Shown here: in pieces, positions 3,073 to 3,404 of the stretch
Layout: every line of letters starts with the position of its first letter
How positions within the stretch are numbered: position 1 is the stretch's first letter
Source: Eledone cirrhosa
Taxonomy: Eukaryota
Direction: 5' to 3'
DNA: 64,000 bases
NCBI GenBank assembly: GCA_964016885.1
Contig: OZ024761.1
Span: 17,298,001 to 17,362,000 of the forward strand
Made by a program: the position numbers and the translations under genes
The notes under the pieces: model-generated
Database searches by the model: none
What the model saw: the letters and a program-made list of their open reading frames with translations, nothing else
Told to the model about the DNA's origin: nothing

Positions 3073-3118
<46 letters not shown>

Positions 3119-3359
3119 CCATGTTGCTTGTTGATTCCTATTTTTGCGTTGCTTTCATCCTTCTATGTTGTTTACTTGTCTCACTCGCTTTACGCGATTT
3201 ACTTGTCCCAATAGCTTTATTTAGCTATTGCTCGCACCAACCTGAGGTATATGATTTTAATGCGATGAAATATCAATGATGGTTGGAAAATCACTGACGA
3301 AGGACTATTTTTATCATATGTAACCCATATGCAACCACGCAGTATTCTTCTTTCTTCTC

Positions 3360-3404
<45 letters not shown>

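Follow-up and report, generated by a model that had tools for sequence, protein, structure and literature searches.

Two insertions of a non-coding tandem repeat

The window, a stretch of 64,000 nucleotides of Eledone cirrhosa DNA, contains two copies of a repeat in which we predict a hammerhead ribozyme, and a third copy of the ribozyme itself. Positions within the repeat are numbered here from the predicted cut site. Copy A (3115..3368, plus strand) is a 5'-truncated insertion of subfamily A, whose period is 526 nt; it spans -137 to about +120 and ends in (TA)n at the fixed 3' end of the family. Copy B (62353..62876, minus strand) comprises exactly one period (523 nt) of the sister subfamily B, from -25 to +498, and is opened at -25 and flanked by (TA)n. 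The monomers of the two subfamilies are 72% alike, and each subfamily has many young relatives: copy A is 97-98% identical to its 40 best genomic matches, and the best full-length genomic matches of copy B are 92-96% identical. The predicted ribozyme of copy B lies at 62801..62871 (minus strand), with its GAAA at 62835-62832, the predicted cut between 62852 and 62851 and one mismatch at the end of stem III. The third ribozyme copy (44019..44096, minus strand, GAAA at 44058-44055) is older and degenerate and belongs to a diverged subfamily.

A first-pass annotation had remarked that the end and the start of the minus-strand copy at 62353-62878 are contiguous in copy A. A BLAST search of 3118-3365 against the 64-kb window confirms this, with the junction at 3225/3226: 3135-3228 match the end of that copy (76%, E 3e-10) and 3228-3342 its start (87%, E 1e-34). 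Across 30 loci, with copy B as the query, the unit continues head-to-tail into a further partial unit everywhere except in copy B. The junction (3225..3226, plus strand, ttagc/tattgc) is not a natural end of the element: it marks where copy B ends and starts, and lies 26 nt upstream of the predicted cut, whereas the 3' ends of the family fall at about +73 and at +120-130. Since copy B is atypical, with a single period opened at -25, the junction is best seen as its own opening point. Copy B lacks the usual terminal redundancy and may be a one-round circle copy or a secondarily truncated array. A SINE-like repeat (62011-62325; further copies at 23044, 31431, 57048 and 59347) lies directly past its 3' end and may be tied to the loss of its terminal piece. 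Three of the top near-full-length subfamily-B matches (L011, L019 and C2:221371083) start at position 24 of the query, which falls inside the TA ambiguity around the predicted cut.

The general plan of the arrays is a variable 5' start, unit upon unit, a fixed 3' end and (TA)n. We derived it from 89 subfamily-A arrays at 88 loci (one locus has two arrays), covering 92 of the first 100 pattern matches on contig C1. Eighty of these arrays end at +123 to +130, five at +72 and four elsewhere; each of the two fixed ends falls on a UA repeat within the monomer, which leaves the true ends uncertain by a few bases. The 5' ends are scattered, and inverted 5' parts occur in 4 of the 89 arrays and in 5 of 59 arrays of an independent mixed set. 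Such partial tandems, with fixed 3' ends inside the unit, truncated or inverted 5' parts and a (TA)n target, bear the hallmarks of Penelope-like elements (PLEs) as described by Craig 2021 and Frangieh 2024, and they set the RNA sense as the plus strand of copy A. Contigs from three sequencing runs of one sample display the repeat family only and have no bearing on its expression.

Are these copies independent units or pieces of something larger? Unit lengths range from 497 to 637 nt across subfamilies, the longest stop-free frame is 97 amino acids, and no coding sequence continues from the units at any locus examined. The first-pass annotation had named as the competing explanation a longer parent with fixed terminal direct repeats; we found no such parent. 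It is very improbable that the copies derive from the pLTRs of some longer autonomous element, or that they form a DNA satellite produced by unequal crossing-over. The 3' ends of Naiad elements, where by eye we find the same fold, would suit the first of these origins, but no locus examined has coding sequence upstream of the unit, and the arrays run unit into unit. The copies are also dispersed, short, polarised and inserted in (TA)n. Like non-LTR retrozymes, the family consists of non-coding tandem repeats with a predicted hammerhead in each unit. The idea of a retrozyme with a circular or multimeric template, put forward in the first-pass annotation, thus finds support in the non-coding unit, the arrays longer than one period, the hammerhead core and the fact that no longer parent was found; its special junction point and its assembly of the ribozyme, built on the wrong GAAA, do not hold.

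Other short repeats of the window contain a CUGANGA...GAAA motif in canonical order (13905-14033, 15989, 16337-16530, 13411, 55372, 58455 and 2512). They represent at least four families, and some are inverted pairs in (TA)n; the motif at 15989 matches the 3' end of a Neptune-like element at loci L204 and L205. A 540-codon stop-free frame at 53569-55188 (plus strand) is probably part of another retroelement.

A predicted hammerhead with strands in S-G-C order

The motif at 3232..3301 of copy A (plus strand, as are all elements below) is predicted to be a hammerhead whose strands follow the non-circularly permuted S-G-C order (type SGC). The helices are supported by covariation. From 5' to 3', the stem II 5' strand (3232-36) is followed by helix a (3237-42), the stem III 5' strand (3246-50), position H17 (3251), the stem I 5' strand (3252-57), the UAA linker (3258-60), the stem II 3' strand (3261-66), GAAA (3267-70), the stem III 3' strand (3270-74), a bulge, helix a' (3281-86), the stem I 3' strand (3288-93) and CUGACGA (3294-3300), with position 10.1 at 3301. 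Written compactly, the strands run IIa - a - IIIa - H17 - Ia - UAA - IIb - GAA - IIIb - bulge - a' - Ib - CUGANGA. By analogy to the hammerhead core, self-cleavage is predicted at AUA, after 3251 (3251..3252). The motif has CUGANGA, GAAA, NUH and stems I-III around the core; copy A lacks one U of the U-run in stem I.

The first-pass annotation had pointed to a degenerate CUGAYGA...G(A/T)AA motif. Its CUGAYGA half is indeed part of the core; its G(A/T)AA half is not the catalytic GAAA, since this downstream element reads GTAA in 172 of 174 A/B-type copies and GAAA in a single one, copy B. Upstream of CUGAYGA (3294-3300), at a fixed distance from it, is the conserved GAAA (3267-3270). Accordingly, the motif is not a canonical type I, II or III hammerhead (orders CGS, GSC and SCG): its order is S-G-C, and a downstream GAAA is absent from 173 of 174 copies. 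Rfam reported no hammerhead or other ribozyme in a natural 2.6-mer or among the best 150 of 393 matches in the window, almost all of which are miRNA matches driven by microsatellites. A weak match to snR66 (E 0.4-0.9) was taken as chance.

We searched the genome with patterns for GAAA-N7-GA-N14-CUGANGA, in three non-overlapping subsets that cover part of the variants. These gave 14,955 matches (control 0), 1,191 (control 69) and 702 (control 16), about 16,800 in total. From 185 distinct segments, 124 with the UAA linker and U16.1 were retained and reduced to 41 representatives differing at more than 7 of 78 bases. Covariation was assessed on a gap-free alignment of 32 of them, nine with truncated or shifted upstream halves having been dropped. 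In these 32 rows, 86.1% of 736 cells are paired, against 65.2 +/- 1.1% after shuffling (0 of 500 shuffles reached this value) and 30-48% in slid controls; although the shuffles take no account of relatedness, the same pairs are also prominent with all 41 rows. Twenty of the 23 pairs vary on both sides, the helices are 78-91% paired and all core nucleotides are retained. The architecture of the fold is therefore well supported by sequence comparison.

Stem II is the weakest helix (78% paired), and only its core-proximal pair is clearly above shuffles in the 41-row set. In 35 of 41 rows, with four pair types, the base that follows CUGANGA is the partner of position 11.1, and positions 11.2-11.6 pair with the upstream strand, not with the downstream one: the next three downstream positions are paired in 11-14 of 41 rows, at or below shuffle level, the upstream strand in 25-30. 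A downstream stem II strand past position 10.1 was rejected on these grounds.

Stem III is joined to helix a/a' by a k-turn-like internal loop (3243..3280), in which UGA at 3243-45 faces AAU-GA-U at 3275-80. A consensus k-turn has two helices separated by a 3-nt bulge and then tandem G.A/A.G pairs, and by sequence this fits subfamilies A, B, D, E and G; position 2n is a U in other subfamilies. In 41 rows, 1n is A in 36, 2n is G in 24 and U in 11, and L3 is U in 34; the GA of the 3' strand is fixed by the search pattern. Without such a bend, helix a' would presumably be unable to run straight into the far end of stem I. One subfamily (L141-L169) has a plain 3-nt bulge in place of the loop and an extra A between A9 and G10.1, and would provide a natural control for what the kink does.

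Does this fold still cleave? We consider the ribozyme very probably active. That it is instead a fold without catalysis, or one that binds protein (k-turn plus pseudoknot), retained for recognition by the reverse transcriptase or for RNA stability, seems improbable to us, although several features would suit such a role. The backbone is open beside the core, between 10.1 and 10.2, an arrangement that Eckert et al. (2023, PMC10085705) assumed to be impossible; stem II is imperfect in many copies, and most cDNAs read through the cut site. However, CUGANGA, GAAA, the A15.1-U16.1 pair (32 of 32 rows) and an H17 other than G (A, C or U in 253 of 254 copies) are exactly what catalysis requires. CUGANGA and GAAA are themselves fixed by the search pattern, but the control counts of 0-69 stand against thousands of matches, and the 5' ends of arrays exceed expectation near the cut site.

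Circular or linear template

The arrays carry a footprint of their template. The cut site is crossed by 69 of the 80 standard subfamily-A arrays and crossed twice by 17, and 33 are longer than one period; read-through occurs in 52 of 59 arrays of the independent mixed set. Because arrays both read through the cut site and exceed one period, the template would have to be circular, an uncut multimer with at most three units, or a molecule copied with precise jumps. The junctions at the cut site are clean: 56 of 66 have one of two standard sequences, and two have a 1-nt indel.

The start points of the 80 arrays, which the first-pass annotation had suggested plotting on the unit, are mostly scattered, with an excess in -4..+16 around the predicted cut (11 ends against 2.9 expected, P=1e-4); the limits of this interval were set in part by ascertainment, and six ends fall in another 20-nt interval. 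Eight of the 11 lie at about +4 to +15 and three at +1. On the second pass, 6 of 22 ends fall in the same interval (P=0.003 or 0.06, according to which control is used). The excess may result from stalling of the reverse transcriptase on the fold, or from AT microhomology. The stop rate per 100 nt rises about threefold, from 0.18 before to 0.57 after one period, and 25 of 31 later stops are outside the cut interval; such a rise may reflect a reverse transcriptase displacing its own cDNA on a circle, or short linear sources. Folded as a circle, the monomer has a minimum free energy about 1 SD below shuffles in subfamily A and 3 SD in B, with no striking rod-like stability.

Taken together, read-through of the cut site, array lengths and the excess of 5' ends around it favour a circular template, short of proof, and, given an active ribozyme, we consider such a template fairly probable. 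The circular RNA is deduced from DNA alone, with a linear multimeric transcript as the alternative. Our main reading, to which we assign a probability of roughly 65%, is that the ~525-nt non-coding repeat spreads as an SGC-hammerhead retrozyme through an RNA circle, copied into (TA)n by a PLE acting in trans. The hammerhead in each unit would cut multimeric transcripts to unit length, at 3251/3252 in copy A, and the resulting RNA would be ligated into a circle by an RtcB-type ligase. A Penelope-like reverse transcriptase/endonuclease, provided in trans, would then copy the circle into (TA)n microsatellites, priming internally at about +73 or about +120, possibly with the help of nicked (TA)n pairing with the internal UAUAUA. 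Copying would extend for up to about 2.6 rounds, with stops commoner after a full round, and a minority of linear cleaved templates would leave 5' ends that coincide with the cut or lie slightly 3' of it.

The priming step has a parallel in the green anole. The purified PLE of this lizard primes internally at two sites, uses unprocessed RNA and inserts without need of its hammerhead (Frangieh et al. 2024, PMC11167929). As in this Poseidon element, initiation at two internal sites would account for two fixed 3' ends, and targets are AT-rich in both systems. Poseidon, however, is autonomous and has a type I hammerhead, and its priming site is non-homologous to the target, whereas both fixed ends of the Eledone repeat coincide with internal UA repeats. 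In view of the anole enzyme (PMC11167929), priming by microhomology is something we can only infer.

The anole enzyme also bears on the rival reading, in which the template is linear, either an uncut multimer transcribed from genomic arrays or a linear monomer copied with precise jumps of the reverse transcriptase, and the ribozyme trims ends or cuts slowly. We regard this as unlikely, though it deserves attention: pLTRs of PLEs are partial tandems, unprocessed RNA is accepted in vitro (PMC11167929), the rates given for published SGC ribozymes are low, at 0.007-0.19 per min (PMC10085705), and arrays with two or three ribozymes exist as possible sources of linear multimers. The rise in stops after one period could mirror source length, and read-through and arrays longer than a unit fit uncut multimers as well. 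However, where 3' ends are fixed and 5' ends truncated, copying from linear RNA can only make arrays shorter, whereas arrays longer than a unit persist in subfamilies that are 67-86% alike. The conservation of the whole catalytic core across these same subfamilies implies selection for cleavage, and the cut-site junctions bear no scars of jumping.

Mobilisers, Naiads and known hammerheads

Which element could mobilise the repeat? The same genome encodes intact PLE frames of 844, 938 and 1096 amino acids with a C-terminal GIY-YIG endonuclease (L202, L201 and L203; contigs C1 and C5), which we read as Neptune-like from their CxxxxCxxC linker. We inspected 50 of 150 listed GIY-YIG loci (the 30 top ones and 20 with long frames), and all are C-terminal-endonuclease PLEs where the motif is readable. 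One such family, with a canonical type I hammerhead, adjoins some copies in (TA)n. In several intact PLE families the 3' UTRs are long and rich in microsatellites, and a hammerhead motif is absent in both orders up to 800 nt past the stop codon. We saw no homology between the monomer and Neptune bodies, and BLAST matches to the monomer within GIY-YIG loci, considered as possible partner sequence, were interpreted as independent insertions. A cross-mobilising role for Neptune is plausible, and intact Neptune-type elements are possibly the present-day mobilisers of the repeat.

The ribozyme itself was likely inherited from the 3' UTR of another PLE group, the Naiads. According to Craig 2021 (PMC8557442), Naiads target (TA)n, are without a canonical hammerhead, some having a 'core' or 'half core', and are remnants in cephalopods. 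We inspected by eye the terminal ~600 nt in 20 of the 54 Naiad consensus records, 12 of which were picked because they were flagged, with identities taken from file order. The same fold was seen at the 3' end of 10 of the 20. Seven have the order of the repeat and the upstream stem II strand (Obim, Ovul, Amil, Chem-3 and Movir-2, less completely Bfor and Esco), and three have the CSG opening of the same strand cycle (Smim, Parc and Hpol); in the other ten (Mmer, Omin, Adux, Chem-1, Sdum, Dst-2, Dst-3, CGi, Mcor and Tama) nothing clear was seen by eye. In Naiad_Obim and Naiad_Ovul, fold, spacing and k-turn-like loop appear the same as in the Eledone repeat. Naiads also resemble the repeat, in the published description, in (TA)n targeting, partial tandems and inversions. 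Unlike the repeat, which codes for nothing, they encode an N-terminal endonuclease and a reverse transcriptase. A search for a Naiad with this ribozyme in the Eledone genome, using two narrow patterns (the published octopus Naiad ribozyme and a Naiad reverse transcriptase motif), gave no match. We hold it slightly better than an even bet that Naiads carry an SGC/CSG hammerhead which spawned a large circular-RNA retrozyme family, with a core-opened permutation and a kink-turn cage, potentially activated by Snu13, a k-turn-binding protein of the host.

Type-SGC hammerheads are known to cleave in vitro (Eckert et al. 2023, PMC10085705). As summarised in that article, the SGC (HRIMA-1 and a variant) and CSG forms come from metatranscriptomes and metagenomes, with none in any known organism's genome save for one GCS candidate. 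The Eledone motif resembles the type SGC described there in strand order, full core, cyclic order of strands, a helix bracing stems I and II, and a 3-nt linker between these stems (UAA in the Eledone repeat). It differs from that description in having block C interrupted, with the 5' strand of stem II and one of the two bracing-helix strands supplied from upstream, and in having stem III tied to this helix on both strands through the k-turn-like loop; its ~16,800 matches are also found within a retroelement of an animal genome. Eckert et al. flag the closeness of stem III and the bracing helix as structurally unexplained (PMC10085705).

Among retrozymes, the closest relatives are the metazoan non-LTR ones. 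Their reported properties include circular RNAs ligated by RtcB, this ligation having been demonstrated in vitro for type I retrozymes (Cervera and de la Pena 2020, PMC7229834). They share with the Eledone repeat non-coding tandem monomers below 45% GC and one hammerhead per unit (PMC7229834; Li et al. 2026, 10.64898/2026.07.22.740005), together with a proposed circRNA intermediate and PLE mobilisation. In these accounts the metazoan units are of type I and ~220-350 nt, whereas Eledone units are of type SGC and 497-637 nt. Searches with type I/III descriptors would pass over the Eledone hammerhead. A literature search by titles and abstracts, with most subscription journals outside its scope, found no earlier report of an SGC or CSG hammerhead in an animal genome or in Naiads. 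The Eledone repeat would thus be a new variant both of the retrozyme and of the type-SGC hammerhead, with cleavage predicted and circles inferred.

Non-circularly permuted hammerheads, so far reported almost only from environmental sequence of unknown host, would now be present, at roughly 17,000 copies, in a retroelement of an animal. The k-turn-like link suggests an explanation, open to testing, of how stem III comes to meet the brace between stems I and II. The by-eye matches in Naiads span comb jellies, corals, jellyfish, nematodes, a spider and cephalopods and, if true, would explain why Naiads seemed hammerhead-free. They would also mean that surveys of ribozymes and retrozymes based on type I/III descriptors miss a class. 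Finally, the many young copies in Eledone may be viewed as a population-level footprint of PLE enzymes copying small RNAs.
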